Shown: positions 23,601 through 51,899 of the stretch, in pieces | Numbering within the stretch: position 1 is the first letter of the stretch | Layout: each line of letters starts with the position of its first letter | Origin: Desulfurivibrionaceae bacterium | GTDB taxonomy: Bacteria > Desulfobacterota > Desulfobulbia > Desulfobulbales > SURF-16 | Reading direction: 5' to 3' | NCBI GenBank assembly: GCA_046537975.1 | Contig: JBKHJR010000003.1 | Span: 6,677-70,676, forward strand | Length of the DNA stretch: 64,000 nucleotides | Notes under the pieces: model-generated | Databases searched by the model: none | Told to the model about the DNA's origin: nothing | The model's input: only the letters and a program-made list of their open reading frames with translations | Position numbers and translations under genes: made by a program

Positions 23601-24062
23601 ATGGATAAAGATCAGATTACAGATACCCCGGAAAAAGAGGAGTACCTGCAGTTCACCTCATTTTACCTGCACGACACCCTGTGCGGAATTGATATCTCCC
23701 AGGTTCAGGAGATCAACGCCGACCTGGACATAACCAGGGTCCCCCTGGCTCCGGAATACGTAATGGGAATAAAAAACCTCCGGGGCCAGATTGTCACGGT
23801 AATCAACCAGAGTCTGAAAATCGGTTATGCCCCTTCCGAAATAGGTAAAAACAGCAGAATTATAATTGTCAATTCAGATGAAGAATATGTGGGTCTGCTG
23901 GCTGACAGGCTAAACGATGTAATAACCGCCCCCAGAAGTGACATTTCAGCCCCACCCTCCAACATTAAAGGGGCCCAGGGTAATTTTTTTTCCGGTATCC
24001 TCAAAAGCAAAGGCAGGGAGTTGATGGCCATCCTCAACCTTAACGAAGTACTGGCAATTTAG
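23601..24062 (+). CDS. cheW: chemotaxis coupling protein CheW
   Basis: 153 aa, typical CheW-like fold sequence (GIKNLRGQIVTVI...VGLLADRLNDV). Confidence 0.88.
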   Translation: MDKDQITDTPEKEEYLQFTSFYLHDTLCGIDISQVQEINADLDITRVPLAPEYVMGIKNLRGQIVTVINQSLKIGYAPSEIGKNSRIIIVNSDEEYVGLLADRLNDVITAPRSDISAPPSNIKGAQGNFFSGILKSKGRELMAILNLNEVLAI

Positions 24063-24099
24063 AAATTGCTACACCCTGAATCTTAGACCTCTTAATTTC

Positions 24100-25179
24100 A
24101 TGTCCATAAAAGTTATGGTGGTGGATGACACCATCTTTTACAGAAAGATAGTCGGCGATCTCCTGGCGGAAATAGACGGTGTCGAGATGGTGGGTACCGC
24201 CAACAACGGCAAAATCGCCCTTAACAAAATCCGCAGCCTGAAACCGGATCTCCTGACCCTTGATGTAGAAATGCCCATCATGTCTGGTCTGGAACTCATG
24301 GAAGAGATCAACAGACAGGATCTGGACGTGGGCTGCATTATGCTGAGCGCTAAGACCCAGAAGGGCAGCGAAGCCACCATGCGGGCCCTGGAGCTGGGCG
24401 CCTTTGATTTCATCTCCAAACCTGACAACGATTCGGCTGAAGAAAACATCAAGGCCATTAAAACTGAACTGGACAAACTTATAAAAGGCTTTATCCGCCA
24501 CCGCCGGCTCAGGGGTGAGCCTGGAGAAAAGCCCGCCGTACCTAAAAAGCCGGCTGTTACCCCCCGACCGGCAAAACCACTAAAACGTACGGAAAAATCA
24601 CTGGTGGTAGCCCTTGGCATATCCACCGGAGGGCCCAACTCCCTTCTTCAGGTGCTGCCCGAACTCCCCGGCGATATAGGAGTTCCCATTCTTCTGGTCC
24701 AGCATATGCCTCCGATCTTCACCGCCTCTCTTGCCCAGAGCCTGGATCGCAAATGCGCTCTGAAAGTAAAAGAAGCAGAAGACCAGGAAAAGGTTGAAGC
24801 CAATACAGTATATATCGCCCCCGGAGGCAAACAGATGAAAGTTGCGTCAGGGGCCGGCGGCCTGCACAGGATGATCAGGATCACTGACGACCCTCCGGAA
24901 AATAATTGCAGACCCTCAGTAGACTATCTCTTCCGCTCCGTGGCCCGGGAATACGGCTCCAAGGCCACCTGCGTGATTATGACCGGAATGGGGTCGGACG
25001 GCAAGCAGGGTATGTCCGTGGTCAAGGCTGCCGGTTCCGTAGGGATAGCCCAGGATGAGACTTCTTCCGTTGTTTATGGTATGCCCAAGGCTGTAGTTGA
25101 CGCCGGCCTGGTTGATATCGTGGCCTCCCTTGACTCTATGTCCCAGGAAATTAGCAAGACACTGCAATGGCACGAATAA
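24100..25179 (+). CDS. cheB: protein-glutamate methylesterase/glutaminase CheB (REC + methylesterase)
   Basis: 359 aa. REC (VMVVDD...LTLDVEMPIMSGLE) and catalytic domain (GISTGGPNSL, VQHMPPIFT, MTGMGSDG). Confidence 0.92.
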   Translation: MSIKVMVVDDTIFYRKIVGDLLAEIDGVEMVGTANNGKIALNKIRSLKPDLLTLDVEMPIMSGLELMEEINRQDLDVGCIMLSAKTQKGSEATMRALELGAFDFISKPDNDSAEENIKAIKTELDKLIKGFIRHRRLRGEPGEKPAVPKKPAVTPRPAKPLKRTEKSLVVALGISTGGPNSLLQVLPELPGDIGVPILLVQHMPPIFTASLAQSLDRKCALKVKEAEDQEKVEANTVYIAPGGKQMKVASGAGGLHRMIRITDDPPENNCRPSVDYLFRSVAREYGSKATCVIMTGMGSDGKQGMSVVKAAGSVGIAQDETSSVVYGMPKAVVDAGLVDIVASLDSMSQEISKTLQWHE

Positions 25180-26450
25180 CCCCTGATGAAATAAGCCTTT
25201 TCGCCGACTATATCTTTGATATATCCGGAATACACATAGGCAAGGACAAAGGCTATCTTCTGGAGACCAGGCTGGGGCCTCTCCTGGACCTGACCGGCTC
25301 CAGGAGCTTTACCGAACTTTACTATAAGACCAAAAACCAGCCCAGCGGTGATCTGGAAAAAACCCTGATAGATGCCATCTCCACCAACGAGACCTTTTTC
25401 TTCCGGGATAACACTCCATTTGAATTAATGAAAAACAAGATTATTCCGGACCTGATCGACCGGCGCTCCAGGCAGTTCCCCAACGGCCCAATCCCCTTGC
25501 GGATCTGGAGTGCGGCTTGCTCAACCGGCCAGGAGGTATACTCTATTGCCATAACCCTGCTGGAGATGCTTACCAATCTGAACCGCTACGACATCTCCAT
25601 TCTGGGAACCGACATCTCCAACAAGGCCTTGGCCCAGGCGAGCTACGGCCAGTATAATCCTTTCGAAGTGGGACGGGGCATGCCGGAAAATTTATTGAAA
25701 AAATATTTTCACAAAACCGGCTCCAGCTATCGTATAAACGATAATGTGCGGGTGCTCGCCAAATTTAAACAACTCAACCTGATGGAGGATTTCGGCCACA
25801 TAGGCAGATTTGACGTTATATTCTGCCGCAATGTTGCCATTTATTTCAACCAGGCCAATAAAATCGGGCTCTTCAAAAAGCTGGCCCACAACCTGGCTCC
25901 GGACGGAGCCCTGATTGTGGGTGGTTCTGAGACACTGCGCGGTTACAGCCATGATTTCGAGGACAAACAGTATCTAAAAGGGATCTTCTACCAGCTCAAG
26001 GGAGAGGAAAAGGAACAAGCAGCCCGGGACATAAAGGAACCAAGTACCCGGGCCGCAAAATCCGGAAGTCCGGTTCACCCCTCTGCCGAACCCAAGAAGA
26101 AAAAAACTGCTCCCAAGGCCCGGCCTCAGGCCCGGAAAAAAACGGCGAAAACAAAGACGGATTCTGCCGCCGCCGAAAAACAGCCGGAATCACCTCCAAA
26201 CCGGAAGGTCAAGCCGGACCGGCCTACTCCGGTCCAAGAAAAAACAGAGAAGCCGGAGAGTATCAAGAGGTCCAAAATGCTCTCTGACTCCATCAAAAAT
26301 GGCCGTAATTCAGGGAAAAAGCCCTCTCTTCTGGCCACCAGAGTTATGAAAAAAAGTTCCGGAAACTCTCTGCTGGCTGAAGGAAAAAACAAAAAACAGG
26401 GTAAGAAAGGATCCCTGCTGGACAAAATCAATTTCAGGAAAAAGAAATAA
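25167..26450 (+). CDS. cheR: chemotaxis protein methyltransferase CheR with ~150-aa Lys/Pro-rich C-terminal tail
   Basis: 427 aa. CheR N-domain (TNETFFFRD) and SAM-binding domain (RIWSAACSTGQEVYSIA, FCRNVAIYF). A low-complexity basic tail starts at about residue 275. Confidence 0.9.
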   Translation: MARITPDEISLFADYIFDISGIHIGKDKGYLLETRLGPLLDLTGSRSFTELYYKTKNQPSGDLEKTLIDAISTNETFFFRDNTPFELMKNKIIPDLIDRRSRQFPNGPIPLRIWSAACSTGQEVYSIAITLLEMLTNLNRYDISILGTDISNKALAQASYGQYNPFEVGRGMPENLLKKYFHKTGSSYRINDNVRVLAKFKQLNLMEDFGHIGRFDVIFCRNVAIYFNQANKIGLFKKLAHNLAPDGALIVGGSETLRGYSHDFEDKQYLKGIFYQLKGEEKEQAARDIKEPSTRAAKSGSPVHPSAEPKKKKTAPKARPQARKKTAKTKTDSAAAEKQPESPPNRKVKPDRPTPVQEKTEKPESIKRSKMLSDSIKNGRNSGKKPSLLATRVMKKSSGNSLLAEGKNKKQGKKGSLLDKINFRKKK

Positions 26451-26474: not shown

Positions 26475-27239
26475 ATGAAATATCATCAACCAAGCACCAT
26501 GGCCCGTCTTTTTCTGATCCTGACTGTCAGCCTGGCTATTTCCGGCTGTAGCGCCCCCGGACTGGATCTCTCCCTGAAAGACTCTTCTTTCACCGGGGAA
26601 AAAGCTCCGGCCCAAGAGGCCATGGCCGTTTCTATCGGGGTTGAAACTTTTATCGACCTGCGCCCCCAGATCCGGGGCAGTGATAATCAGAAGTGGCTCG
26701 GTTATATTCCGGGAGTTCTCTGGGTTGATATCGCCTCCGAGATTCCGGAAATCTACACCGCCTATTCACCCTATAACTCAAGACCGATGAAGGACACCAT
26801 CACCGAGGCTGTCACCGCCGGCCTCAGAGAAGCCGGTGCATTCGGTCAGGTCAGTTATCTGCCCCGGGATCCCTATAAGGAACCGGATTACCATCTGGAA
26901 GGAATTCTGCAGAAATCCTATGTAAAAGAAAGGGGCTACTACTACGGTTCCTCAATCTATGCCTGGCTGCTGAGGATACTGGGGCTGCCCTACGTTTCTT
27001 ATGAGGTGGTCCTGGAAACCGACCTGCGCCTGCGGGACATGGCTACCCGGGACATCATCTGGCAGGGAAAAATCAAAGGCCGGAGGACAGACAGGTATAA
27101 CAATGTCTATCAAATAACTCAGGGCAGAAACGGCAAACATCTCATCGCCTATAACTTCACCCTTATACTCCAGGACCAGCTGCCCGGCCTTATTAAGGAC
27201 ATGGTTAGGGCTCTTGAAAAGTCCAGAAATAAGAAGTAA
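26475..27239 (+). CDS. hypothetical lipoprotein
   Basis: 254 aa. Signal peptide plus lipobox (LAISGCS). No family recognised. Confidence 0.55.
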   Translation: MKYHQPSTMARLFLILTVSLAISGCSAPGLDLSLKDSSFTGEKAPAQEAMAVSIGVETFIDLRPQIRGSDNQKWLGYIPGVLWVDIASEIPEIYTAYSPYNSRPMKDTITEAVTAGLREAGAFGQVSYLPRDPYKEPDYHLEGILQKSYVKERGYYYGSSIYAWLLRILGLPYVSYEVVLETDLRLRDMATRDIIWQGKIKGRRTDRYNNVYQITQGRNGKHLIAYNFTLILQDQLPGLIKDMVRALEKSRNKK

Positions 27240-27248
27240 AAAAAGGAA

Positions 27249-27794
27249 ATGCACCCTGGATACAAATACCTGACACAGGATCAGCCTTCTCCTGAAATCA
27301 TGGCTATACTGGGCAAAATGCCAGACCGGTGGGGGCGTATGGATCAGATCAGCCGGCTTGTACTGGTGGAAGTGGGCCGGACCCTGAAAGAATACGGCCT
27401 GCTGGACAGTAATAGCAGATCCCTGCCCCCCTCCCAAACAGTGGGCCTGGTGGCAGGGACCCGTCGGGGATCCCTCACTACAGACCTTGCCTACTGCGCT
27501 TCCCTGCAAAAAGGGATAAATCATGCCAGCCCCGCCCTCTTCAGCTACACCCTGGCCAATATCTCCCTGGCCGAAGCCGCGGTCCATTACAGTCTGACCG
27601 GCCCGGTTTACGCCCTTTTCAGCAAACAGCCGTACGAAGACGCCCTGCAGGAAGCAAAGCGCTGGCTCAATACCGTTAATTATCCTTTGCAGATAGTTGC
27701 CGGTCAAGTGGATGTTTTCCCGGACATAACATCCCCGCTTTTATCTCATAAGATGGAAGAATACCAAACAGGGGCCAGATTTGTAGTGCTATAA
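27249..27794 (+). CDS. truncated ketosynthase-like protein (KS N-terminal half only; Gln at the active-site Cys position)
   Basis: 181 aa. Aligns by eye with ORF 34521-35273 and with the KS active-site region: GPVYALFSKQ versus GPAAVITNAC (KS 33283) and GPAYTLTNYC (34521). No His-His half. Confidence 0.6.
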   Translation: MHPGYKYLTQDQPSPEIMAILGKMPDRWGRMDQISRLVLVEVGRTLKEYGLLDSNSRSLPPSQTVGLVAGTRRGSLTTDLAYCASLQKGINHASPALFSYTLANISLAEAAVHYSLTGPVYALFSKQPYEDALQEAKRWLNTVNYPLQIVAGQVDVFPDITSPLLSHKMEEYQTGARFVVL

Positions 27795-27994: not shown

Positions 27995-29281
27995 ATGCCC
28001 CATATAACCATAATTTATCCGGAATGGACCAAGATACCGGAACAGACCGAATTCCATCTCCCCCCTCACGCTCCGGTATGTCTGGCCGCCGAGATCCCGG
28101 AAGACTATGAGGTCTCTTTCATCGATGAAAACATGGACCCTGTCGACCCGGACAACCGGACCGATCTGATCCTGCTCTCCATGATGCTAACCTGCCAGAT
28201 CCCCAGGGGGCTGGAAATTGCCGCTGCTTACCGGAATAGAGGGATCAAGGTGATCGCCGGGGGAATTGCCACCATGCTTCATGCCGAAGAGGTGGCTGAA
28301 CATGTGGACTCTGTCTTTCTGGGCGAGGTGGAAGGCGGCCGTCTGACCAGGGTTCTGGAACACTGGCGGGAAAACAACCTGAAGCCGCTCTATAACTACT
28401 TCCGGGATTTTCCGGAAACAGAGGAGATTGGTCCGGCCCGCCGCGACATTCTCAACTACGATCACTACGTCTACCGGGGGATGCCCATGGTTGATCTGGT
28501 CCATGCCTCCCGGGGCTGCAAGTTCAACTGTTTTCCCTGCGCCACCGCCTATCTGGGAGGGCGCACCTTCAGACCCCGGCCCATGGCCAGGGTTGCCGAA
28601 GAACTGGAAGGAATTGACAATAATCGCCTGTTCCTGGTGGACAACTCCCTGGCCCAGGATCGGGACTGGGTACTGGAACTGTTTTCCGTCCTGGAGTCAT
28701 TAGGGAAAAAATGGATCAGTCACCCGATTCTGGACGAAGAAAAAGTAATTGCCCGGGCAGCCAAGGCAGGATGCTGGTTTGTTTATCAGGCTGTTTTTGA
28801 CACCTCGGAGGTGATACGCAACCGGGTAAAAAGGCTCAAAGATCATGGTATAGGAGTGGAAGCCGCAGTTCTCCTGGGACCTGACAATCAGGACGCCGAC
28901 TACATAAAAAGACTTATCGATTTTCTCCTGGAAATTGATGTGGACATGGCGGAATTCTCCATACTGACTCCCTTCCCTCACACCCCGATGACAAAACAGT
29001 TCAAAAAGGAAGGCCGAATACTGCATAACGACTGGCGAAAATATACCACCAGTGAGGTCTGCTTTCAGCCTAAACACATGACTCCGGATGAACTTCAGGA
29101 GATGTATCATTATGCCTGGCAGGCCTTTTATCAGGAAAAAAGTCAATCCCTGCGCATGGCCCGGCTCTTCCATAAGGTGGTAAAAAAAGAAATAGCAGAC
29201 AACAGCTGGCGCTCTCCCATCGACCTTTCCCAGAAACGCCGGAAATGGCAAGAAACCAGGGGAACCGGCAATGGGGATTAA
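27995..29281 (+). CDS. B12-binding-domain radical SAM enzyme (class B) #1
   Basis: 428 aa. N-terminal Rossmann-like B12-type domain (DLILLSMM...KVIAGGI...FLGEVEG) and a CxxxCxxC motif (RGCKFNCFPC). Confidence 0.85.
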   Translation: MPHITIIYPEWTKIPEQTEFHLPPHAPVCLAAEIPEDYEVSFIDENMDPVDPDNRTDLILLSMMLTCQIPRGLEIAAAYRNRGIKVIAGGIATMLHAEEVAEHVDSVFLGEVEGGRLTRVLEHWRENNLKPLYNYFRDFPETEEIGPARRDILNYDHYVYRGMPMVDLVHASRGCKFNCFPCATAYLGGRTFRPRPMARVAEELEGIDNNRLFLVDNSLAQDRDWVLELFSVLESLGKKWISHPILDEEKVIARAAKAGCWFVYQAVFDTSEVIRNRVKRLKDHGIGVEAAVLLGPDNQDADYIKRLIDFLLEIDVDMAEFSILTPFPHTPMTKQFKKEGRILHNDWRKYTTSEVCFQPKHMTPDELQEMYHYAWQAFYQEKSQSLRMARLFHKVVKKEIADNSWRSPIDLSQKRRKWQETRGTGNGD

Positions 29282-30605
29282 CTGCCTGCTTATCTCAACA
29301 AACCAGGTGGAAGAACCCTACCCTGTCTATCCCCTGGGAGTTGCCCATCTGATGGGAGCTTTGGAGGCCGGTGGTCACAGCAGTAAACATTTTGACCTTC
29401 TGGCCGGGGGAGGCACCGAAGCCCTTGCCGGTTTTCTGCAGGACTCCTCTTTTGACCTCATCTGCCTCTCTATCCGTAATATAGACACCATGGACTGTAA
29501 CTGTCCCCACCATCTTCTGGGAGACACTCAAAAAACCATGGCGATTATCAGGAGGTCATCGGGTGCCCCGGTGGTGGTGGGAGGGCCTGCCTTCTCCATC
29601 ATGCCGGAAGAAATAATGGAATTAATCCAGGCAGACTACGGGGTGGTTGGCGAAGGGGAAAGCGCCCTTGTCCGGCTGGCCGACAGCATGGAGAGGGGGA
29701 CGGCCATTGCAAAAGGGATCATCCATCCCCGCCCCCGAAAATACCCCTGGAGACAGACCGCCTATCAAAAGGAAAACATGGCTTACTACCTCCGGAATGG
29801 CGGGATGCTGAACATTCAGACCAAGAGGGGCTGCCCCTACCGGTGCGCCTACTGTTCCTATCCCAATCTGGAAGGAAGGCATTACCGCTTCCGGGACCCG
29901 GAAGAGGTGGCGGACGAAGTACGAAGGTTGAACCTGGAGCTGGGGGCGGACTATATCTTTTTTTCCGACTCCACCTTTAATGACAATCAGGACCACTTTC
30001 TCCAAGTCGCTGAGGCCCTGATCAAAAATGACAACCATGTCCCCTGGTGCGCCTTTTTCCGGCCCCGGAACCTCTCAGCCGGGGCCTTGGCCCTGATGAA
30101 AAAAGCAGGGCTGGCCGCCATGGAGATGGGGACCGACGCCGCCTGCGACCGCACCCTGGAGGGCCTGGGTAAAGGCTTCACGTTCGGCGAGGTGATCGAT
30201 AATCACGAATTAACAGTGGCCCAGAACATCCCATGCGCCCATTTCATTATTTTCGGCGGCCCCGGGGAAGACCGGGACACCATTAAAGAAGGGCTGGCCA
30301 ATCTCGACCGCCTGCGCAACACCGTGGTCTTTGCCGGAGCCGGAATCAGAATACTTCCCGGTACTGAAATATATAAGAAAGCTCTGGCCGAGGGACTTGT
30401 TGGTCAAAATCAGTCCCTGCTGGATCCGCTCTTTTATTTCTCTCCCGGGATCAGCCGCGAGGAAGTGGATCAGGAACTGAAAAACGCCTGGCAAAAGAGA
30501 TTTGACCGGGTATACCCCTTTATGGGAATGCAGCAAAGGATCAACCACCTGCACAAAAAAGGCTATAAAGGCCCGGTCTGGGATAATCTGCTGGTAAGAA
30601 GATAA
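29271..30605 (+). CDS. B12-binding-domain radical SAM enzyme (class B) #2
   Basis: 444 aa. B12-type domain (DLICLSIRNIDT...VVVGGPAFS...VVGEGE) and CxxxCxxC (RGCPYRCAYC). Overlaps the previous gene by 11 nt. Confidence 0.85.
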   Translation: MGINCLLISTNQVEEPYPVYPLGVAHLMGALEAGGHSSKHFDLLAGGGTEALAGFLQDSSFDLICLSIRNIDTMDCNCPHHLLGDTQKTMAIIRRSSGAPVVVGGPAFSIMPEEIMELIQADYGVVGEGESALVRLADSMERGTAIAKGIIHPRPRKYPWRQTAYQKENMAYYLRNGGMLNIQTKRGCPYRCAYCSYPNLEGRHYRFRDPEEVADEVRRLNLELGADYIFFSDSTFNDNQDHFLQVAEALIKNDNHVPWCAFFRPRNLSAGALALMKKAGLAAMEMGTDAACDRTLEGLGKGFTFGEVIDNHELTVAQNIPCAHFIIFGGPGEDRDTIKEGLANLDRLRNTVVFAGAGIRILPGTEIYKKALAEGLVGQNQSLLDPLFYFSPGISREEVDQELKNAWQKRFDRVYPFMGMQQRINHLHKKGYKGPVWDNLLVRR

Positions 30606-30658: not shown

Positions 30659-31885
30659 ATGAAATATCAAAGAAACTGTGCTCCGCCATACGCTTCCCAC
30701 CGGACTTCACCGCTGAACCCCCTGATAGTTATCCCGGTATATAACCATGCCGCCACCCTGCCGGAAGTGGTCAACAGGTCCCTGGAGACCGGTTTCCCGG
30801 TTCTGGTGGTAGATGACGGCAGTACCGATCAGGGGACGGAACAACTCCGGAATCCGGGCTGCCGGATCTTAAAACTCGGCATCAACCGGGGCAAGGGGGC
30901 GGCCATCCTCGCCGGGGCCCGAAAGGCCTCGGAACAGGGTCATGATGCTGTAATTACCGTGGATGCCGACGGCCAGCATGACCCGGCTGAAACCTGCCTT
31001 CTGGTCCGGGAGGCGGAAAAGAACTGGCCTCTCATGGTCATCGGCTGCCGGGATATGTCCGGAGAAACAGTACCCCGCTCCAGCAGGTTCGGCCGGCTTT
31101 TCTCCAACTTCTGGGTGAGGCTGGAATGCGGCCGCGATCTTCCTGATACCCAGAGCGGCTTCCGCCTTTATCCTGTCCCGGAAATACTGGACTTAAATAT
31201 TGCCGGAAGCCGCTACGATTTCGAAGTAGAGGTTTTGACCAGGGCGGCCTGGGCCGGCCTTCCTATTAAATCCGTGCCGATTTCAGTCCATTACCCGGAG
31301 ATTGGAACCAGGATCTCCCATTTCAATCAGGTAAAGGATAATCTGCGCCTGACTTTCCTGCACAGCCGCCTGATCTGCCGGGCCCTGCTTCCCTGGCCCC
31401 ATAAAAAAATCATCGCTGAAAATCCGGCCGCCATTCAGGAACCGGAAAAACAGTCAATTTTTCATCCGGTAAAGCTCCTGAAAAGACTGTGCCTGGAACA
31501 CACCACCAGCCTTCAGCTGGCGGTGGCGGTCTGGGTGGGTATTTTTCTGGGGGCCCTGCCCCTGATAGCTGTTCATACAGTGGTAATTATCTATGTCTGC
31601 CACCGGCTCCACTTAAATAAACCGGCGGCGGTTGCTGCCAGCCAGATCTGCGCCCCGCCGCTACTGCCGGTAATATGTATCGAGACCGGCTATTTTTTGA
31701 GAAACGGGACCTGGCTGACCGAGGTTTCCTATGATATTCTTGTCCTGCAGATTCACCAGAGACTGTGGGAATGGCTGCTGGGCTCTCTTATCGTAGGACC
31801 GCTGCTGGGCCTGGTTGTCGCTTTTTCCGCCTATTTGGTTATCAGGTATCTACGCACTCTGGGCAAATCTTGTGTGAGAAAATGA
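30659..31885 (+). CDS. family-2 glycosyltransferase fused to a C-terminal membrane (DUF2062-like) domain
   Basis: 408 aa. GT2 motifs (VIPVYNH, VLVVDDGSTD, VDADGQHD), then 3-4 TM helices. Confidence 0.8.
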   Translation: MKYQRNCAPPYASHRTSPLNPLIVIPVYNHAATLPEVVNRSLETGFPVLVVDDGSTDQGTEQLRNPGCRILKLGINRGKGAAILAGARKASEQGHDAVITVDADGQHDPAETCLLVREAEKNWPLMVIGCRDMSGETVPRSSRFGRLFSNFWVRLECGRDLPDTQSGFRLYPVPEILDLNIAGSRYDFEVEVLTRAAWAGLPIKSVPISVHYPEIGTRISHFNQVKDNLRLTFLHSRLICRALLPWPHKKIIAENPAAIQEPEKQSIFHPVKLLKRLCLEHTTSLQLAVAVWVGIFLGALPLIAVHTVVIIYVCHRLHLNKPAAVAASQICAPPLLPVICIETGYFLRNGTWLTEVSYDILVLQIHQRLWEWLLGSLIVGPLLGLVVAFSAYLVIRYLRTLGKSCVRK

Positions 31886-32775
31886 TTGGTGGCATCCGAT
31901 TGGCCCAACGATTAGAGGCCCTGGGGCACTACATCTTTTATACGGTGATTATCCTGAGCGGCCAGCCCGGCGCCTATATTCTGCTGGCCCTGGTGATCTT
32001 TTCCTACACCCTGTTCAGCAGAAATATTCACAGAAAAACAGATTATTACCTGAGCCGCCGTTTTCCGGATAAATCCTGGGTCCGGCGCCGGCTGGACACT
32101 TTCAGGCTGGTCTACTCTTTTGGAAAGGTGCTGGTGGACAGGGCCTGGCTGGGTTTAAGGAAAAAAGCGGCCTTGGAAGGGAATTTCCCCGATCAATCCC
32201 TGCTTCTCCGGACCATAGAGGAAGGAAAGGGGGTTATCCTGCTTACCGCCCATGTAGGCAACTGGCAGACTGCTCTGGCCAATCTCACTGAACTTCCGGT
32301 GGCGGTTCACTCCCTCATGGAGTATGATCAGGAGGCTGTGGCCAAGCACTATTTCGATCTCAAGGACGGGCAGCGCCCCTTCCGGATCATCGCCAGTGAC
32401 GGTTTCCTGGGCGGCATGATCGAATCAACGGCAGCCCTGCAGCGCGGCGAAATCGTAACCATCATGGGAGACCGCTATGCCGGCGGGCCGGAGGTGGAAG
32501 TCGATTTTCTGGGCAGCCCGGTAAGGCTCCCGGCCACCCCTTATCAACTGGCGGCCTCGACCTCTGCGCCGATCGTGGTTCTCTTTGCCGCCAAAGAGGG
32601 GCAAAAAAAGTACTCCCTGAAAATCTGGGATATTTTCAGACCGGAGGCTGTAAACCGGCAAAACCGAGAGCGGGAGATCACCAAATGGGGACAGCGCTTT
32701 GCCTCTTCCCTGGAAAATTATCTGGCCCAACACCCTTACCAGTGGTACAATTTCTCCGATTTCTGGAAACAGTAA
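31882..32775 (+). CDS. LpxL/HtrB-type (lipid A biosynthesis-like) lysophospholipid acyltransferase
   Basis: ATG at 31882 overlaps the GT2 stop (ATGA). N-terminal TM helix and an HVGNWQ motif resembling the HxGNWE of LpxL-family acyltransferases. The ORF-track start at 31765 lies inside the GT2 gene. Confidence 0.75.
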   Translation: MIGGIRLAQRLEALGHYIFYTVIILSGQPGAYILLALVIFSYTLFSRNIHRKTDYYLSRRFPDKSWVRRRLDTFRLVYSFGKVLVDRAWLGLRKKAALEGNFPDQSLLLRTIEEGKGVILLTAHVGNWQTALANLTELPVAVHSLMEYDQEAVAKHYFDLKDGQRPFRIIASDGFLGGMIESTAALQRGEIVTIMGDRYAGGPEVEVDFLGSPVRLPATPYQLAASTSAPIVVLFAAKEGQKKYSLKIWDIFRPEAVNRQNREREITKWGQRFASSLENYLAQHPYQWYNFSDFWKQ

Positions 32776-32850: not shown

Positions 32851-33111
32851 ATGGATGACTTAAAAAGACAATTAAAAGGAATTATTGTAAAAGACCTCAA
32901 ATTAACCGGCATAACTCCTGAAGAGATAAAGGATGATGACTCTTTATTCGAAGAAGGACTCGGGCTCGACTCCCTTGATGCCGTGGAACTGGTGGTTCTT
33001 ATCCAGAAAAATTTCGGAGTGCAGATCGAGGACATGGATGAGGGGAATCAGGCCTTTGCCTCCATAAATTCCCTGGCCCGGTTCATTCAGGATAGACAGA
33101 AACAGGAATAA
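32851..33111 (+). CDS. acyl carrier protein #1
   Basis: 86 aa, phosphopantetheine site GLDSLDAVELV. Confidence 0.88.
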   Translation: MDDLKRQLKGIIVKDLKLTGITPEEIKDDDSLFEEGLGLDSLDAVELVVLIQKNFGVQIEDMDEGNQAFASINSLARFIQDRQKQE

Positions 33112-33282: not shown

Positions 33283-34524
33283 ATGAATAAAAAGCTGCAC
33301 AACAGAGTCGCCGTCTCCGGGACAGGCTGTATATCCGGGGCAGGGCGAGATGTCAGGGCCCACTGGGACAGTCTCTGTAACAGAAGGATAAATTGCGGCC
33401 CTGTTCCGGAATGGCTGTTTGCAACCGACCTTCCCTACCCGGTTTTTACGGCTCCGGCGGAATGCAGTCATCCTGAACAGGACCTTTATTTCCCTTATCT
33501 TCCCCCCCGCCCGGAAAACGAGATCAACCGGACAATACTTCTGGTGATTAACGCGGCTGTACAGGCCCTGCTGCAAACCGGTTTGTCTTTAGAGGAATTA
33601 AAGATGAAAAATGTAGGCATGGTGTTCGGCACCACCGTGGGCTGCACTTTTAATAACGAAGATTACTACTCCGCCTGGCGCCGGGGGGAAAAACCCGATC
33701 CGGAGCCGGTAAATCGCTATCTCGCCGGCAACCTGGCCTCTGCCCTCCAGTCTTTTTCCGGAATCAAGGGGCCGGCAGCGGTGATCACCAATGCCTGCGC
33801 CTCAGGAACTGATGCCATCGGCCTGGCCCGCAACTGGATCCTTTCCGGCCTTTGCGATCTGGTTATTGCCGGAGGGGGGGATGAACTCTCCAGAATTGCC
33901 TACAACGGTTTCACCAGCCTGCAGCTGACTTCAAAATCTCCCTGCCGCCCTTTTGACCGGGACCGGGACGGATTGAATCTGGGGGAAGGGGCGGCGGTCC
34001 TGATCCTGGAACCGGAAAGCAGGTGCCGTGAGCGGGGGAGTTCTACCCTGGGCTGGCTTCGGGGTTACGGTGCGGCAAATGATGCCTATCATCCCACTGC
34101 CCCCCATCCACAGGGCCGTGGCCTGAAAGCGTCTTTGGATATGGCCCTGGAGCAGATTGAGGGAGAGCGAAAAATCTCCTATCTAAACAGCCATGGAACA
34201 GGGACTCCGAGCAATGACCCGGCTGAGATGAAGGGCCTGCAATCTTCTTCTGCATACATAGAGAATGCGGCAATCGTTTCAAGCAAGGGTCTCACCGGTC
34301 ACACCCTGGGGGCGGCCGGGGCCTTGGAGGCAATTTTCACCCTGCTCTCCCTGAATGAAGGTTTTACCCCCGGTTCAGCCGGCTGCAGTCATCCCGACCC
34401 GGAACTTGCCCTATCTCCCCTGACCCGGGGAGAAAACCGGGAACTGGCCGGCAGCCTGGGACTGAGTACCTCGCTGGCCTTTGGCGGCGGCAATAGTGCC
34501 CTGATACTGGAGAGAGCCAAATGA
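33283..34524 (+). CDS. beta-ketoacyl-ACP synthase (KS I/II type) #1
   Basis: 413 aa. Active Cys ITNACASGTDA, His motifs SHGTGTPSND and GHTLGAAG. Confidence 0.9.
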   Translation: MNKKLHNRVAVSGTGCISGAGRDVRAHWDSLCNRRINCGPVPEWLFATDLPYPVFTAPAECSHPEQDLYFPYLPPRPENEINRTILLVINAAVQALLQTGLSLEELKMKNVGMVFGTTVGCTFNNEDYYSAWRRGEKPDPEPVNRYLAGNLASALQSFSGIKGPAAVITNACASGTDAIGLARNWILSGLCDLVIAGGGDELSRIAYNGFTSLQLTSKSPCRPFDRDRDGLNLGEGAAVLILEPESRCRERGSSTLGWLRGYGAANDAYHPTAPHPQGRGLKASLDMALEQIEGERKISYLNSHGTGTPSNDPAEMKGLQSSSAYIENAAIVSSKGLTGHTLGAAGALEAIFTLLSLNEGFTPGSAGCSHPDPELALSPLTRGENRELAGSLGLSTSLAFGGGNSALILERAK

Positions 34525-35273
34525 GCAGGATCCAGATATCCTCCATAGCTCTAAACGAAAATCAAAACCCGCAGACTTCATTTGCCCGGGAACTGAGGCG
34601 GGCTGACGGTTTCACAAGCCTGGCCGTTACAGTCGCCGAACAGGCTCTTGCCGGACTCAACCCCCATGATGACAGGGGGGAGACCGGGATATTTATCGGC
34701 ACAGCTTTCGGTCCCCTGGCTACCAATTTTGCCGCCCTTGATACCCTGCTCGATGACGGGGAAGGGCAGATGTCCCCTACCCTGTTTTCCCATTCGGTTT
34801 TCAATACCGCCGCCGGTTATATAAGCCGGCTCTTTAAACTCCGGGGACCGGCCTATACCCTGACCAACTACTGCTGGCCTTTCTTCCTGGCCCTGCGGGA
34901 AGGAAAGACCGCAGTGGAACACGGGATAATCAGGAGGGCGGTGGTACTGGAAGTGGAAATATACAGCCGGATCCTGACCGAGGCCGGACAACGGTCAAAG
35001 GGGGAAGACTTCCCCGTCCTTGTACCCGGCGCAGTCGCCTGGATACTCGAGGACGAAACTGACACCGGCAATGAGCCTGTAGGTCTTCTTGATTCCCTGG
35101 AATTCGAGGAATACGATGTCGCCCCGGAAGAATTCCTTTCCCCTCGCCCTCTGGAGCATTCATTTGCTGTCAGCCGCACCGCCCGGCAGTTAAAAAAACT
35201 CCCCGGCCAAAAAGAGTCATGGTGTGCTGAAGAGCTGTTCGGCAAGGCCCGGGTTGACCTGCAGTCTCCTTGA
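34521..35273 (+). CDS. truncated ketosynthase-like partner protein (chain-length-factor-like, N-terminal half only)
   Basis: 250 aa. ATGA overlap with the KS gene. GPAYTLTNYC aligns with the KS active site, but the His-His C-terminal half is missing. Confidence 0.7.
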   Translation: MSRIQISSIALNENQNPQTSFARELRRADGFTSLAVTVAEQALAGLNPHDDRGETGIFIGTAFGPLATNFAALDTLLDDGEGQMSPTLFSHSVFNTAAGYISRLFKLRGPAYTLTNYCWPFFLALREGKTAVEHGIIRRAVVLEVEIYSRILTEAGQRSKGEDFPVLVPGAVAWILEDETDTGNEPVGLLDSLEFEEYDVAPEEFLSPRPLEHSFAVSRTARQLKKLPGQKESWCAEELFGKARVDLQSP

Positions 35274-35536: not shown

Positions 35537-36772
35537 GTGCCGACAAAAAGGGTAGTTATTACCGGACGGGGAGCGGTATCTCCTTATGGTCTGGGAGTTA
35601 AGCTCCTTACAGAAAAGGTCTGGCAGAACTGTTCAGGGATACGGCTGATGCCGGAATGGCAGGAGATAAAAGGCCTTGAATCCCATCTTGCCGCTCCGGT
35701 TCCCGCCATTGATAGCTCCCAACATCTGCCCCGCTCCCTGCGTCGTACCATGGGTGATATGGCTCTGTACGCTGTGCTGGCCTCCCGGGAAGCTGCGGGG
35801 GAAGCCGGGCTTGAGGAAGAAACCCTGACAGGCGGCAGCACCGGAGTTGCCATCGGTTCCACCACCGGTTCTCCCAGTGTCTTAGAAGAATTTTATCAAA
35901 ACTACATCCCGGGAAAAAGTATCGAAGAGGTCAGATCCGGGATGTTTTTCAAAATAATGGGACACAGCTGTGCAGCCAATGTATGCCTGGCTCTGGGGAT
36001 CAAAGGGGAACAATGGTCACCTGCGAGTGCCTGCACCTCTGCAGCCCAGGCTATCGGTATGGGTTATCTGCTGATCAAAAGCGGCCGCCAGGAAATAATG
36101 CTCTGCGGCGGTGCTGATGAGGCCCATCCCACCGTCACCATGATCTTCGATGTAGTCAAGGCAGCCTCCAGATATGCCGGGGACCCCATTCTGGCTCCCA
36201 GACCTTTTGACAGCCGGAGGGACGGCGTGGTCTGCGGCGGCGGCAGCGGTATCCTGGTTCTGGAAAGCCTGGAATCAGCCCAAAAACGGGGGGCTGACAT
36301 TCTCGGCGAGATAAAAGGCTTCGGCCTGGTCAATGACAGTCAGCACATTGCCAATCCCAGCAGGGAGTCCATAGCAAGGGCTATGAACGGAGCAATGACT
36401 GAGGCCGGCATCAATTACCGGGAAATAGATTATGTCAATGCCCATGCCACCGGAACCGTACTGGGCGATATCGCTGAAGGGACAGCCATCCGGGAAAATC
36501 TCAAAGAAACCACCCCGGCAAGTTCATTTAAAGGCCATCTGGGCCATACCCTGGGAGCAGCCGGTTCCCTTGAGGCTATAATTCTTCTGGAGATGCTGGC
36601 CCGGCAGGAAATCGTCCCCACTCTTCACCTCGAAGAGGCCGACCCTGAACTAAAAGGCATGGATCTGGTCCGGGAAATCCGGCCCCAGCGGATGAATTGT
36701 GTCCTTAAAAACAATTTTGCCCTTGGCGGAGTGAACACCGCTCTGCTCTTGAAACAGTGGACAGGTAGATAA
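35537..36772 (+). CDS. beta-ketoacyl-ACP synthase II-like (FabF-like) #2
   Basis: 411 aa with a GTG start. Active Cys SPASACTSAAQA, AHATGTVLGD and GHLGHTLGAAG. Confidence 0.9.
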   Translation: MPTKRVVITGRGAVSPYGLGVKLLTEKVWQNCSGIRLMPEWQEIKGLESHLAAPVPAIDSSQHLPRSLRRTMGDMALYAVLASREAAGEAGLEEETLTGGSTGVAIGSTTGSPSVLEEFYQNYIPGKSIEEVRSGMFFKIMGHSCAANVCLALGIKGEQWSPASACTSAAQAIGMGYLLIKSGRQEIMLCGGADEAHPTVTMIFDVVKAASRYAGDPILAPRPFDSRRDGVVCGGGSGILVLESLESAQKRGADILGEIKGFGLVNDSQHIANPSRESIARAMNGAMTEAGINYREIDYVNAHATGTVLGDIAEGTAIRENLKETTPASSFKGHLGHTLGAAGSLEAIILLEMLARQEIVPTLHLEEADPELKGMDLVREIRPQRMNCVLKNNFALGGVNTALLLKQWTGR

Positions 36773-37056
36773 TGACGGAAGAAGAGATCAAAAAAAGGGT
36801 TAGAAAAGTCCTTGCCCATGAATTTGAACTTGAAGAGGCGGAGCTTAAACCCGAGGTCAGCCTGTATGAAGATCTGGAACTGGACAGTCTTGACGCCGTG
36901 GATATGGTAGTGGCCCTGGAAAAAGCCTTTGCCATGAAAATGACCGATCAGGAAGCCCTGCGTGAAGTGGCAACTATTCAGGATCTTTTTGATTTCTTGA
37001 TTGAGATGGCCCATGAAACCAACAATGAAATTAGGGAAGACTCTGGTACGGGATAA
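36772..37056 (+). CDS. acyl carrier protein #2
   Basis: 94 aa, LELDSLDAVDMVV. The start overlaps the KS stop by 1 nt (TAATG). Confidence 0.88.
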   Translation: MTEEEIKKRVRKVLAHEFELEEAELKPEVSLYEDLELDSLDAVDMVVALEKAFAMKMTDQEALREVATIQDLFDFLIEMAHETNNEIREDSGTG

Positions 37057-37816
37057 CGATATCCTACAATATATTAAAGACGGTTTTAGAAAACTCTTTT
37101 TCAATATTTACTTCTGGCCTCTCTTTGTCCTGATTACCCTGATCAGCTTTTTCTGCATTCCCCTGATAACAGCCGCCAACTTTTTCTTTCATTTTTGGGC
37201 GCAGGACAAAGCCTTTCGGAACGGGATCAGGATCTACGGCCAGGTAATAATAAAAATTGCCTCCGTCATGGCCCCGGTAGAGGTCGAAGACAGATCAGGG
37301 GGATTATCCCTGCCCGCTATATTTGTTGCTAATCACAACTCCTCTGCCGATCCTTTTCTTTTCGGGGCCCTGCCTTTTGAAAACAGTTTCGTCACCAGCT
37401 GGCCCTTCAGGATTCCGTTTTACCGCTGGGCGATGAAACAGGCCGGTTATATTGATGCCAATAAAGGCTGGGAAAACCTGGTGCGCGAGGGGTGCAGACT
37501 CTTTAACCGGGGAAGTTCCCTGATTATCTGGCCGGAAGGACATCGCAGTCCGGAAGCGGAATTGCAGAGATTCCGCAGCGGAGCTTTCAGACTGGCGCTG
37601 GAAACTGGCCGTCCCATTGTCCCGGTCTGTATCCTGGGTTCGGGCGATTTGCTTCCTCCGGGCAGAAGACTGCTGAATCCGGTGCCGGTAAAACTTATCA
37701 TTTATCCGGAAATTCCCCCGGAGAGATATGCCAACGCTTCCCAAGCCCACAAGATGTTGGGTGAAGAAGTCAGAGATATTATTCAAAAAGAAATAAGGGG
37801 TGCCGGTGAACTTTGA
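37001..37816 (+). CDS. PlsC-family 1-acyl-sn-glycerol-3-phosphate-type acyltransferase
   Basis: 271 aa. N-terminal TM helices, an HX4D motif (NHNSSADP) and a PEGHRS motif. The true start may be ATG at 37013 or 37025. Every option overlaps the ACP 3' end. Confidence 0.8.
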   Translation: MRWPMKPTMKLGKTLVRDNDILQYIKDGFRKLFFNIYFWPLFVLITLISFFCIPLITAANFFFHFWAQDKAFRNGIRIYGQVIIKIASVMAPVEVEDRSGGLSLPAIFVANHNSSADPFLFGALPFENSFVTSWPFRIPFYRWAMKQAGYIDANKGWENLVREGCRLFNRGSSLIIWPEGHRSPEAELQRFRSGAFRLALETGRPIVPVCILGSGDLLPPGRRLLNPVPVKLIIYPEIPPERYANASQAHKMLGEEVRDIIQKEIRGAGEL

Positions 37817-37866: not shown

Positions 37867-39162
37867 ATGGACTACTCACTCAATAAGGCCCTGAAATGGC
37901 GGCAAAGCGATCCCGATGAGATCAGGCACCATCAGGACCAGCTCTTACAAGATCATTTCCGGCAGGCCTCCGGGAGTACTTACTATCAGGAATTGTTCAG
38001 GAAGCTGACTCTGGATCCGGCTGAGATCACCCTGTCTGATCTGGATCAGGTCCCCCTTACTTCCAGACAGGACCTGGAGGAAAACCCCGGAGCTTTTACC
38101 GCGGTTTCAGAAGAGGCACAGGTGGATATGGCCCTGACCTCCGGGACCACCGGCAGCCCCGTCCCCGTGCCCTATACCGCCTCGGACCTGACCAGACTCG
38201 CCTTCAACGAAGAACTCTGTTTCCGGGGAGCGGGTCTCAAGGCAAGTGACCGGATTCTGCTCTGTGTCACCCTGGACAAGAATTTTATCGCCGGCCTGGC
38301 CTATTACAGCGGCGCAGTCCGCCTGGGGGCCTCGGTCATCCGCAGCGGCCCGGGACAGCCGGCCAGGCAATGGGAGATCATAAGACAACTCCGCCCTAAC
38401 GTAATAGTAGGAGTTCCATCCTTTCTGCTGAATCTGGCCCAATGGGGAGGAAAGGAAGGCCTGAAACCCGAGCAGGCCGGCATAAAATCCCTGATCACCA
38501 TCGGAGAACCCATCAGACAGCCTGATTACAGCTTTACCCCCCTGGGCCGGCAGCTTTCCGATATCTGGCAGGCCCGGCTTTTTTCATCCTACGGAGCAAC
38601 GGAACTGGAAACCGCCTGCTGTGAATGCCCGGCCGGCAAAGGCGGCCATATTCATCCCGAATTGATGATCGCCGAAATAATAGATGACCAAGGCAATAAA
38701 CTGCCGGCAGGTGAACCGGGAGAACTGGTTATAACCACCCTGGGAGTTGAAGGTTTTCCCTTGATCAGATTCAAAACAGGTGATATAGCAACCATCGAGG
38801 ATGCTCCCTGTGAGTGCGGCTGGAGAACATCCAGGCTGGGGCCTCTTCAGGGACGTCTGGCCCAGCGCCTGAAATACAAGGGAACCACCCTGTACCCGGA
38901 AATGATTTACTACCTTCTTCAGGATATCGAAGGAATAAAGGCCTACTACCTGGAAGTCCGGTCCTCTTATGATCTCTCCGATGACATCACCGTGACAGTA
39001 GGAGGAGATGATCCCTCCCTGTCGGCGGACAGAATTGCAGATCTTCTCCAGGCCGGTCTCCGGGTCCGGCCGCCGGTGAAAATAAAGGAAACCGAAGAGG
39101 TTCTGGCCATGATGAATCAGGGAAGCGGCAGCAAGACAAAACGTTTTTTTGATTACAGGTGA
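37867..39162 (+). CDS. PaaK / coenzyme F390 synthetase-like adenylate-forming enzyme
   Basis: 431 aa. AMP-binding motif TSGTTGSPVPVPYT and YGATE. Confidence 0.8.
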   Translation: MDYSLNKALKWRQSDPDEIRHHQDQLLQDHFRQASGSTYYQELFRKLTLDPAEITLSDLDQVPLTSRQDLEENPGAFTAVSEEAQVDMALTSGTTGSPVPVPYTASDLTRLAFNEELCFRGAGLKASDRILLCVTLDKNFIAGLAYYSGAVRLGASVIRSGPGQPARQWEIIRQLRPNVIVGVPSFLLNLAQWGGKEGLKPEQAGIKSLITIGEPIRQPDYSFTPLGRQLSDIWQARLFSSYGATELETACCECPAGKGGHIHPELMIAEIIDDQGNKLPAGEPGELVITTLGVEGFPLIRFKTGDIATIEDAPCECGWRTSRLGPLQGRLAQRLKYKGTTLYPEMIYYLLQDIEGIKAYYLEVRSSYDLSDDITVTVGGDDPSLSADRIADLLQAGLRVRPPVKIKETEEVLAMMNQGSGSKTKRFFDYR

Positions 39163-44558: not shown

Positions 44559-44589
44559 TCTACTCTACTCAAGAAAACATTTACCCAAA

Positions 44590-48229: not shown

Positions 48230-48245
48230 GGATGCCGACTCCGCT

Positions 48246-51843: not shown

Positions 51844-51899
51844 GTCCGATTATACTCTTCCTGTCTTTTTATAAGTTTTTTTATCCCCGAAACCTGCGG

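Follow-up and report, generated by a model that had tools for sequence, protein, structure and literature searches.

A conserved pair of radical SAM genes in a predicted aryl-polyene/flexirubin-type cluster of a Desulfurivibrionaceae bacterium

The ORF1/ORF2 gene pair

The stretch of DNA analysed here (the window; 64,000 nucleotides of contig JBKHJR010000003.1, from a Desulfurivibrionaceae bacterium) carries two overlapping open reading frames (ORFs), ORF1 and ORF2, coding for the radical S-adenosylmethionine (SAM) enzymes rSAM1 and rSAM2. They are a conserved pair of uncharacterised families, widespread in anaerobes, and lie in a predicted aryl-polyene (APE)/flexirubin-type gene cluster:

27995-29281, plus strand: ORF1 (rSAM1, 428 aa), a divergent AprD4-like radical SAM protein with a CX3CX2C motif, a Rossmann-like N-terminal domain and a DUF4070 C-terminal region
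29271-30605, plus strand: ORF2 (rSAM2, 444 aa), TIGR04072 family, TsrM/BzaD-like (NCBIfam and Pfam)

Both ORFs are intact. The ATG of ORF2 lies at 29271, 11 nt ahead of the ORF1 stop, and the gene overlap suggests translational coupling. An initial annotation of this DNA had pointed out the 11-nt overlap and the motifs RGCKFNCFPC and RGCPYRCAYC, which the coordinates and the position of the ORF2 ATG bear out: the cluster motif reads ASRGCKFNCFPC in ORF1, including RGCKFNCFPC (CKFNCFPC), and KRGCPYRCAYC in ORF2, including RGCPYRCAYC (CPYRCAYC). The three cysteines of the CX3CX2C arrangement, which in the radical SAM superfamily serves the [4Fe-4S] cluster within a partial TIM barrel, are invariant in 29 orthologs of ORF1 (C175/C179/C182) and in 30 diverse homologs of ORF2 (C188/C192/C195). 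Conservation of M1, Y8, P9 and W11 among the same 29 orthologs backs the start of ORF1. A reading of the two genes as pseudogenes or relics was ruled out by the intact ORFs and the many residues invariant across orthologs. A promoter and terminator scan of the 200-nt gap 5' of ORF1 gave matches at chance level only, and none of the RNA sequencing runs searched for the window sequence had a match; the sequence is present in microbial-mat and hypersaline-lake metagenomes.

ORF2 is, by domain homology, a class-B (cobalamin-type) radical SAM enzyme. It matches the Pfam models B12-binding (56.8 bits, cutoff 32.1) and Radical_SAM (72.8 bits) and reaches 578.9 bits with the NCBIfam model TIGR04072, 'lipid biosynthesis B12-binding/radical SAM protein' (rSAM_ladder_B12; curated cutoff 360), over model positions 2-442 of 443, so that the family name suggested in the initial annotation proved to be the right one. 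The next named NCBIfam matches are BzaD (172 bits, cutoff 450) and TsrM (131 bits, cutoff 500). The ORF2 family comprises 646 clusters at 50% identity (E below 1e-30), and its profile finds TsrM (6wte) as the closest solved relative, over both domains (178.6 bits, E 1.5e-51). Residues 5-151 of ORF2 align with TsrM 5-153, including the lower-axial Arg69, which is also Arg69 in ORF2 and belongs to a conserved S-x-R-N-x-D motif (an arginine in 29 of the 30 homologs compared, a diverse set). In TsrM this arginine lies under the corrin, and Glu273 sits on the unique iron of the Fe-S cluster, preventing radical SAM cleavage (PMC12931638). The Glu273 position is Thr235 in ORF2 (Val in 24 of the 30 homologs, Glu in none) and the Glu236 position is Tyr197 (Tyr in 29 of 30). 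Since Glu273 is absent, ORF2 may cleave SAM to a radical, unlike TsrM. The pocket of ORF2 appears TsrM-like for cobalamin, combined with an open Fe-S site. Natural fusions of ORF2 homologs were also observed, with an N-terminal LpxL-type acyltransferase (P0141), with an N-terminal SPASM radical SAM protein 51% identical to the window protein encoded at 39269-40324 (P0152), and with a C-terminal hotdog domain (P0168).

For ORF1 we conclude that it is a true radical SAM enzyme whose N-terminal domain is Rossmann-like, its cobalamin binding and class-B status being unproven. DUF4070 is the sole Pfam model passing (27.1 bits, in the C-terminal region); B12-binding (21.9 bits, cutoff 32.1) and Radical_SAM (19.0 bits, cutoff 29.5) stay below their cutoffs, and the predicted structure nonetheless matches radical SAM structures. 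The highest NCBIfam score is 46 bits, and with 38.7 bits against a cutoff of 360 the protein is not a member of TIGR04072. In the AlphaFold2 model, made from 29 orthologs, residues 1-135 form an alpha/beta Rossmann-like domain of high local confidence, followed by a radical SAM barrel. The top Foldseek match in the PDB is AprD4 (6fd2; E 3e-15, TM 0.69), with TsrM (TM 0.53-0.57), the glutamine methylase 9ccb and MiaB lower down. Despite its Foldseek matches, a MiaB/RimO-type assignment was rejected because ORF1 has just two conserved N-terminal cysteines, C29 and C67, instead of three. When the ORF1 family profile was run against PDB sequences, AprD4 (36.8 bits) was the sole match below E 0.001, and the second and last was 9ccb (E 0.006). 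AprD4 lies inside the class-B similarity network yet does not bind cobalamin (PMC12931638). Some ORF1 orthologs carry precomputed PF02310 matches. The N-terminal B12-type domain ascribed to both ORFs at the outset therefore stands for ORF2 and is unproven for ORF1, in which the Pfam match is below cutoff, AprD4 is the top match and only a Rossmann-like fold is predicted. As far as the sequences tell, only the second gene of the pair is clearly of the B12-dependent type.

The ORF1 family is separate from that of ORF2, unnamed and more conserved: orthologs of ORF1 in related loci have a median identity of 58% (54-74%) versus 44% (37-60%) for those of ORF2. More than 6000 ORF1 relatives are found in the databases; the nearest, 70-81% identical, come from Desulfobulbales (Desulfurivibrio, Desulfosediminicola, Desulfopila and others) and bear generic names only. 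In a profile-profile comparison the cores of the two families align at 97% probability (ORF1 81-391 with ORF2 96-427), and residues 1-80 of ORF1 have no alignment to the ORF2 family, in which the same region holds the cobalamin lower-face motif.

Gene content of the cluster

A search with an alignment of seven ORF2 sequences against one genome per species gave 80 related loci, whose synteny with the window was followed by tblastn of the window proteins. The pair does not head the cluster, as had been suggested, since two conserved cluster genes come first (26475-27239 and 27249-27794). The genes are as follows, with ketosynthase abbreviated KS, chain length factor CLF and acyl carrier protein ACP:

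23601-26450: chemotaxis genes cheW, cheB and cheR, directly upstream of the cluster
26475-27239, plus strand: predicted lipoprotein, 254 aa, first cluster gene after cheR; no Pfam or NCBIfam match, signal/lipobox-like N-terminus
27249-27794, plus strand: short KS-N-like, CLF-like protein, as a rule the partner of KS3; Pfam ketoacyl-synt 24.2 bits, N-terminal part only
30659-31885, plus strand: glycosyltransferase family 2 (GT2) fused to DUF2062 (Pfam)
31882-32775, plus strand: LpxL/lysophospholipid-type acyltransferase (Pfam Lip_A_acyltrans), in 61 of the 80 loci; the ORF opens at 31765, likely start 31882 or 31900
32851-33111, plus strand: ACP1 (Pfam PP-binding), in 52 of the 80 loci
33283-34524, plus strand: KS1, FabF-like; closest named model of the cispentacin AmcF/PRK09185 type
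34521-35273, plus strand: CLF-like short KS, 250 aa, putative partner of KS1 (Pfam ketoacyl-synt, N-terminal part only; synteny)
35537-36772, plus strand: ketosynthase KS2 (NCBIfam/Pfam)
36772-37056, plus strand: ACP2 (Pfam PP-binding)
37001-37816, plus strand: PlsC-type acyltransferase (Pfam Acyltransferase); true start probably slightly downstream of 37001
37867-39162, plus strand: PaaK/FlxY-like aryl-acid ligase, probably for starter activation; Pfam AMP-binding, NCBIfam top match FlxY at 430.7 bits, below the cutoff of 520
39269-40324, plus strand: radical SAM enzyme of SPASM type (AhbD/NirJ-like), the fifth of the cluster; Pfam Radical_SAM and SPASM, all NCBIfam matches below cutoff
40321-41616, plus strand: rSAM3, class-B radical SAM enzyme, conserved partner of DarB; Pfam B12-binding and Radical_SAM above threshold
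41645-42799, plus strand: StlD/DarB-family ketosynthase (dialkylresorcinol/cyclohexanedione-forming), NCBIfam PRK06816 554.4 bits, cutoff 450; the ORF opens at 41525, start 41645 inferred
45840-46097, minus strand: third ACP, last gene of the minus-strand arm; Pfam PP-binding 23.7 bits, grouping with the ACP1 family
46177-47520, minus strand: ABC-2 permease (Pfam)
47474-48373, minus strand: ABC transporter ATPase (Pfam ABC_tran); true start probably downstream of the TTG at 48373
48246-49265, minus strand: DarH, BtrH-related ACP-dependent acyltransferase; NCBIfam DarH 479.6 bits, cutoff 300
49262-49678, minus strand: DarG-family protein; NCBIfam DarG_fam 148.5 bits, cutoff 70
49681-50271, minus strand: predicted lipoprotein, 196 aa, no family match; 14 of the 80 loci have a weak ortholog behind the CLF gene
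50356-51843, minus strand: rSAM4, class-B radical SAM enzyme, passing the Pfam thresholds for both B12-binding and Radical_SAM
51900-52985, minus strand: ketosynthase KS3; in other loci its ortholog lies immediately upstream of the genes for the short KS-like protein and ORF1
Downstream of the cluster: glyceraldehyde-3-phosphate dehydrogenase (GAPDH) gene

The window thus holds two KS/CLF pairs plus KS2, three ACPs, DarB, DarG and DarH, and an ABC exporter. Its gene content marks the locus as an aryl-polyene/flexirubin-dialkylresorcinol-type type II polyketide synthase cluster and not as a generic fatty-acid locus: the APE/flexirubin core is there, with KS and a short CLF-like partner, dedicated ACPs, an aryl-acid ligase, a GT2 protein and lysophospholipid-type acyltransferases. 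Both CLF-like proteins (250 and 181 aa) have a match to the N-terminal domain of KS only, and the shorter one, 181 aa as an ORF, is 151 aa by the gene caller (L081 gene call). For the dialkylresorcinol part, DarB (554.4 bits versus 450) and an ACP (45840-46097) are present and DarG and DarH score above their cutoffs, and no DarA was recognised beside DarB, the gene upstream of it being rSAM3 in five of five contexts. An ACP occupies the equivalent position after the ABC permease in two further loci (L082 and L083); the window copy is below the 100-aa ORF listing.

In this regard, flexirubins are aryl-polyene acids esterified to dialkylresorcinols, made by a tyrosine ammonia-lyase (TAL; FlxA), the ligase FlxY, type II KS, ketoreductase and dehydratase proteins and DarAB; their cluster also holds an acyltransferase, LolA, a glycosyltransferase and an exporter, and their aryl ring bears a methionine-derived methyl group (PMC3992019). 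With the proteins of related loci as tblastn queries, TAL, a double-hotdog dehydratase, a thioesterase and a phytoene-desaturase-like protein were absent from the 64-kb window, and Pfam annotation of the cluster ORFs gave no ketoreductase, LolA or MMPL, an ABC-2 exporter being present instead. We found no paper that combines flexirubin, dialkylresorcinol and radical SAM, or aryl polyene, radical SAM and cobalamin, none that ties these radical SAM enzymes to aryl-polyene or flexirubin chemistry and none that names TIGR04072.

Some other features of the window were recorded. Between the cluster arms (43179-45183) lie genes for a HAMP-GGDEF (diguanylate cyclase-like) protein and a 197-aa predicted lipoprotein of no family. 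Two antisense ORFs on the plus strand, at 47958-49088 (376 aa, opposite DarH and the ABC genes, no family match) and 50482-51984 (500 aa, opposite rSAM4), are most likely spurious. An Rfam search of the window gave only two tRNAs (7362-7435 and 57041-57122) and no cobalamin riboswitch or other RNA.

The other radical SAM enzymes

The further class-B enzymes expected at 40321-41616 and 50356-51843 were confirmed by both Pfam models. Four such genes are present when ORF1 and ORF2 are counted, as first described. Their description as four class-B paralogs holds only in part, because ORF1 is unproven as class B, a fifth radical SAM gene of SPASM type lies at 39269-40324, and pairwise identity among ORF1, ORF2, rSAM3 and rSAM4 is just 21-25%, which points to superfamily relatives from four distinct families and not to recent paralogs. 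With 45.1 and 96.3 bits, rSAM3 and rSAM4 are not members of TIGR04072. The top named match of rSAM3 is HpnR (183 bits, cutoff 650), and those of rSAM4 are HpnJ (187 bits, cutoff 578) and BchE (178 bits, cutoff 481). Orthology of these radical SAM enzymes to BchE, HpnJ, HpnR, HpnP-type, PhpK, GenK-type or other named class-B enzymes was rejected on scores far below the curated cutoffs, and Pfam and ORF annotation of the window gave no hopanoid or bacteriochlorophyll genes; the link to such pathways named in the initial annotation as contrary to its proposal was accordingly not seen.

The stop of the SPASM gene overlaps the ATG of rSAM3 by 4 nt. Orthologs of rSAM3 (60-66% identity) occur commonly in Desulfobulbales, the cable bacterium Ca. 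Electrothrix among them, and the gene directly downstream is a DarB-like ketoacyl-ACP synthase III in four of four further contexts, or five of five with the window. The rSAM3-DarB pair lies inside a full cluster much like that of the window in L082 (10001-12460), in a minimal ABC-ACP-rSAM3-DarB module in Ca. Electrothrix (L083, 10001-12436), and as a two-gene unit in L084 (6001-8469) and L085 (6001-8460). In the canonical dialkylresorcinol pathway the aromatase DarA is needed after DarB (PMC6836626). No cluster ORF matched a DarA-named model, the presence of such a model in the libraries being unverified, and each cluster ORF of at least 100 aa is otherwise assigned or a small lipoprotein. 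Because rSAM3 always lies by DarB and no DarA was recognised, rSAM3 may replace DarA or may decorate (methylate) the ring. Beside the rSAM3-DarB unit of the two Desulfopila-like genomes lies a divergent operon (L084 8472-13296, L085 8497-13299) with genes for a PEMT-like methyltransferase, an amine-oxidase/phytoene-desaturase-like flavoprotein, a class-B radical SAM protein (~450 aa) and a double ketosynthase (~725 aa).

Related loci

By record titles, the related loci occur in Thermodesulfobacteriota (Desulfobulbales, Geobacter/Desulfuromonadales, Desulfovibrionales) and also in Nitrospirota, Omnitrophota, Planctomycetota, Cloacimonadota, Calditrichota, Verrucomicrobiota, Hydrogenedentes, Spirochaetota, Bacillota and some Alphaproteobacteria, a spread of at least 10 phyla. 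They share the cassette KS3 - short KS - rSAM1 - rSAM2 - (rSAM4) - GT2/DUF2062 - LpxL-type acyltransferase - ACP1 - KS1 - CLF. In the 72 of the 80 loci with enough flank for adjacency counts, an ORF1 ortholog lies directly 5' of the ORF2 ortholog in 58, the tblastn-aligned regions overlapping or lying a few nt apart in many loci, and an rSAM4 ortholog (52-71% identity) lies directly 3' of it in 24; rSAM4 is the third member of an rSAM1-rSAM2-rSAM4 triad in other lineages. Upstream, the short KS ortholog directly precedes the ORF1 ortholog in 48 of the 80 loci and is itself preceded by a KS3 ortholog, and orthologs of the lipoprotein encoded at 26475-27239 lie 5' of the cassette in L006 and L013. 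Downstream, GT2-DUF2062 comes after ORF2 or rSAM4 orthologs in 59 of the 80.

Roughly one locus in four has the second module, KS2-ACP2-PlsC-ligase-SPASM, within 10 kb. Additionally, an aromatic amino-acid lyase (566 bits) is found in 20 of the 80 loci, a 4HBT thioesterase in 44 and a phytoene-desaturase-like flavoprotein in 16; further genes code for weak ApeI-like and ApeP-like dehydratases, a short-chain dehydrogenase/reductase (SDR) ketoreductase, LolA, DUF3261 and MMPL. A scan of the ORFs of the 80 loci for the class-I methyltransferase motif I gave essentially none, which is weak evidence as the scan used a crude regular expression. Compared with L010, L031, L044 and L082, the modules of the window are permuted, KS3 and rSAM4 having moved to a separate arm on the minus strand, where DarG/DarH and the ABC genes also lie.

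Similar loci number in the thousands, and that of the window is an example of them, not a discovery. Four radical SAM enzymes in one ACP/KS cluster had been called atypical for fatty-acid or polyketide loci, a view contradicted by a cassette that recurs in 58 of 72 related loci and at least 10 phyla and was described in 2009 (PMC2649909). In that work synteny between the cluster of Kuenenia stuttgartiensis, which is an anammox bacterium, and that of Desulfotalea psychrophila (Desulfobulbales) was noted, and Desulfotalea makes no ladderanes (PMC2649909). The Kuenenia cluster, kuste3335-3352, holds a glycosyltransferase, phytoene desaturase, FabZ, FabG, ACPs, FabF paralogs, two radical SAM enzymes and a phenylacetyl-CoA ligase, with class-I methylases alongside the radical SAM enzymes, and kuste3342 and kuste3343 were undetectable on expression in E. 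coli (PMC4790861). In metagenome surveys many non-anammox phyla have received 'ladderane' biosynthetic gene cluster calls, for which no explanation is offered (PMC9902471). According to a 2026 review, not one ladderane enzyme is demonstrated, the pathway's radical SAM enzymes are all uncharacterised, and ladderanes and the Jaw5 product stand alone among ketoacyl lipids in being even proposed as radical-SAM-modified (PMC13459092). The window does not look like a ladderane-biosynthesis locus: the closest relatives are Desulfobulbales and the cassette occurs in many non-anammox phyla, the anammox-specific genes (amxACP, amxFabZ, Kuste2803-type) not having been searched by sequence.

Discussion

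We regard it as probable, if only just, that ORF1 and ORF2 are the conserved tailoring pair of an anaerobic 'ladderane-like' version of the APE/flexirubin-type type II polyketide-lipid clusters. An aryl acid would be activated by the ligase and loaded onto an ACP, after which the KS/CLF pairs would lengthen it into a polyene. The substrate would then be an ACP-bound aryl-polyene and not the plain acyl chain of the initial annotation, the former being the likelier in view of the FlxY-like ligase, DarB, DarG and DarH in the window and of TAL, the ApeI/ApeP-like dehydratases, LolA and MMPL in its relatives. ORF2 would methylate an sp2 carbon of this intermediate, in the phenol ring or the polyene, via methylcobalamin, and would so supply the methionine-derived ring methyl, a class-I methyltransferase task in aerobic flexirubin/APE producers. 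This step is proposed because the nearest relatives of ORF2, BzaD and the tryptophan 2-C-methyltransferase TsrM (6wte/6wtf), are methylases of aromatic sp2 carbons (PMC12931638), and we put it forward tentatively, as possible rather than probable. ORF1 would be an obligate partner on the intermediate of ORF2 and may not need cobalamin. In addition, rSAM3 would work with DarB on the resorcinol half and rSAM4 with the KS3 module, and the acyltransferases and DarH would join the pieces into an exported pigment-lipid (ester or lipid).

Several points weigh against this proposal. Neither the ORF1 nor the ORF2 family has a characterised member, and methylation is extrapolated from the nearest relatives. 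Having no equivalent of TsrM Glu273, ORF2 may do genuine 5'-deoxyadenosyl (5'-dA) radical chemistry instead of a TsrM-like polar methyl transfer, and a hydrophilic lower-face residue is also found in OxsB, which is not a methylase (PMC12931638). The class-I methylases beside these radical SAM enzymes in Kuenenia (PMC4790861) argue against a simple role as 'methyltransferase substitute'. The ORF1 structure is a model of moderate confidence (mean pLDDT 73). Lipid analysis of Desulfotalea gave polyunsaturated hydrocarbons, not aryl polyenes (PMC2649909). Lastly, relatives have a lyase, a ketoreductase, dehydratases, a thioesterase, LolA and MMPL that the window is without, and therefore the pathway is incomplete within the 64 kb or borrows enzymes of fatty acid synthesis.

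The radical SAM enzymes might instead be O2-independent replacements for aerobic steps that use O2 or flavin (desaturation, hydroxylation, aromatisation), as BchE is for AcsF, with rSAM3 standing in for DarA. Most phyla and orders in which the loci occur, going by record titles, are known mainly from anoxic habitats. HpnJ and BchE are the top named matches of rSAM4, and rSAM3 is directly 5' of DarB both in the window and in each of the four other contexts, the Ca. Electrothrix module offering no other partner candidate; DarA is canonically needed after DarB (PMC6836626), and no cluster ORF matched a DarA-named family. That DarA requires O2 is, however, an unestablished premise, and 'DarA-less' DarB homologs occur elsewhere and may make other products (PMC6836626). 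Since, for ORF1 and ORF2, there is no known O2-dependent APE step to replace, and the nearest relatives of ORF2 are methylases, we think such a substitution rather unlikely. We place at a similarly low level the combination in which rSAM1-rSAM2(-rSAM4) would carry out novel radical/cobalamin chemistry beyond methylation (C-C bond-forming or skeletal, ladderane-related) on the ACP-bound (aryl-)polyene while rSAM3, separately, would be an O2-independent DarA stand-in.

Another reading is repeated radical chemistry by the class-B enzymes on a saturated or polyunsaturated fatty-acyl chain (methyl branching, cyclisation or C-C cross-linking, as initially proposed, or ladderane-like ring formation), yielding an unusual membrane lipid. 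It draws on the definition of TIGR04072 from the Kuenenia 'ladderane' cluster, on the suggestion that the radical SAM enzymes common to Kuenenia and Desulfotalea process polyunsaturated chains (PMC2649909), on the phytoene-desaturase-like flavoproteins of 16 of the 80 loci and on the open Fe-S site of ORF2, which fits 5'-dA radical formation. Desulfotalea nevertheless carries the cluster without ladderanes, the cassette occurs in at least 10 non-anammox phyla, and the neighbours are aryl-polyene/flexirubin genes, among them those for an aryl-acid ligase and for a tyrosine/histidine ammonia-lyase. Nor does the presence of four enzymes imply repeated action on one chain, as they belong to different sub-modules, rSAM3 being tied to DarB and rSAM4 to KS3, and are not iterative. 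We consider this proposal improbable. An action of ORF1 and ORF2 on the polar anchor, by AprD4-like radical dehydration or another change of a sugar or glycerol from GT2-DUF2062 and the acyltransferases, is very improbable, because the diol dehydratase AprD4, although the closest solved relative of ORF1, is remote (~17% identity, 36.8 bits, one extra residue between cluster Cys 2 and 3), and because the succession of ORF2, GT2-DUF2062 and LpxL-type acyltransferase in most loci and the P0141 fusion to an LpxL-type acyltransferase are countered by the equally tight linkage of ORF1 to the upstream KS3/short-KS pair and by the P0168 fusion, whose hotdog dehydratase-like domain speaks for acyl-ACP chemistry.

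The tailoring-pair proposal bears on enzymes for radical SAM modification of acyl/polyketide lipids, which are almost wholly uncharacterised. The analysis places the 'ladderane-type' radical SAM pair in an aryl-polyene/flexirubin-like pathway common in anaerobes, with an ORF2 that is TsrM-like and has an informative active-site difference and an ORF1 that may be no cobalamin enzyme, and finds rSAM3 locked to DarB at the position that is normally that of DarA. The rSAM1-rSAM2(-rSAM4) unit spans anaerobes of more than 10 phyla and the anammox bacteria, and what began as a vague idea of 'class-B paralogs' becomes a set of specific, cheap experiments for cultivable relatives.

Comparison with known systems

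Among characterised enzymes, HpnR, HpnJ and BchE are the top named matches of rSAM3 and rSAM4 and share their domain architecture, but the scores reach 183-187 bits at best versus equivalog cutoffs of 481-650, and no genes of those pathways lie nearby. ORF1 resembles the radical SAM 1,2-diol dehydratase AprD4 (6fd2) in having a Rossmann-like N-terminal domain followed by a radical SAM barrel. It differs in sequence, with an identity of only ~17% and 34.9 bits against a cutoff of 500 with the NCBIfam AprD4 model, and in keeping the canonical CX3CX2C spacing, whereas AprD4 aligns with one extra residue between the second and third cluster cysteines. TsrM matches ORF2 over both the cobalamin and the radical SAM domain and shares the corrin arginine (R69); ORF2, in contrast, has Thr/Val in place of the cluster ligand Glu273 and Tyr in place of Glu236, and scores far under the family cutoffs of both TsrM (131 versus 500) and BzaD (172 versus 450).

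As for whole clusters, the APE (E. coli/Xenorhabdus ape) and flexirubin (Chitinophaga/Flavobacterium flx and darAB) systems share with the window KS with short CLF-like partners, at least two ACPs, a FlxY-like ligase, GT2, lysophospholipid- and PlsC-type acyltransferases, DarB, DarG and DarH. With the relatives of the window they share, furthermore, the tyrosine/histidine ammonia-lyase, ApeI/ApeP-like dehydratases, ketoreductase, 4HBT thioesterase, LolA, DUF3261 and MMPL. They differ in that radical SAM enzymes are not reported in the described aerobic clusters, and in that the window has a FlxY match below cutoff (430 versus 520), no recognised DarA, and an ABC-2 exporter in place of MMPL. 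The clusters of Kuenenia (kuste3335-3352) and Desulfotalea (DP185x) were compared by published gene lists, with kuste3342/3343 and DP1853/1855 not mapped one-to-one onto the window enzymes. That of Kuenenia has in common with the window a glycosyltransferase, radical SAM enzymes (two are listed), a phenylacetyl-CoA-type ligase, several FabF paralogs and ACPs. Relative to the Kuenenia cluster, the window is without FabZ, FabG, phytoene desaturase and class-I methylases and adds DarB, DarG, DarH and rSAM3. The chemistry of these 'ladderane-like' clusters is uncharacterised, and the cluster type itself is already known from Kuenenia and Desulfotalea, the window being a further example of it.

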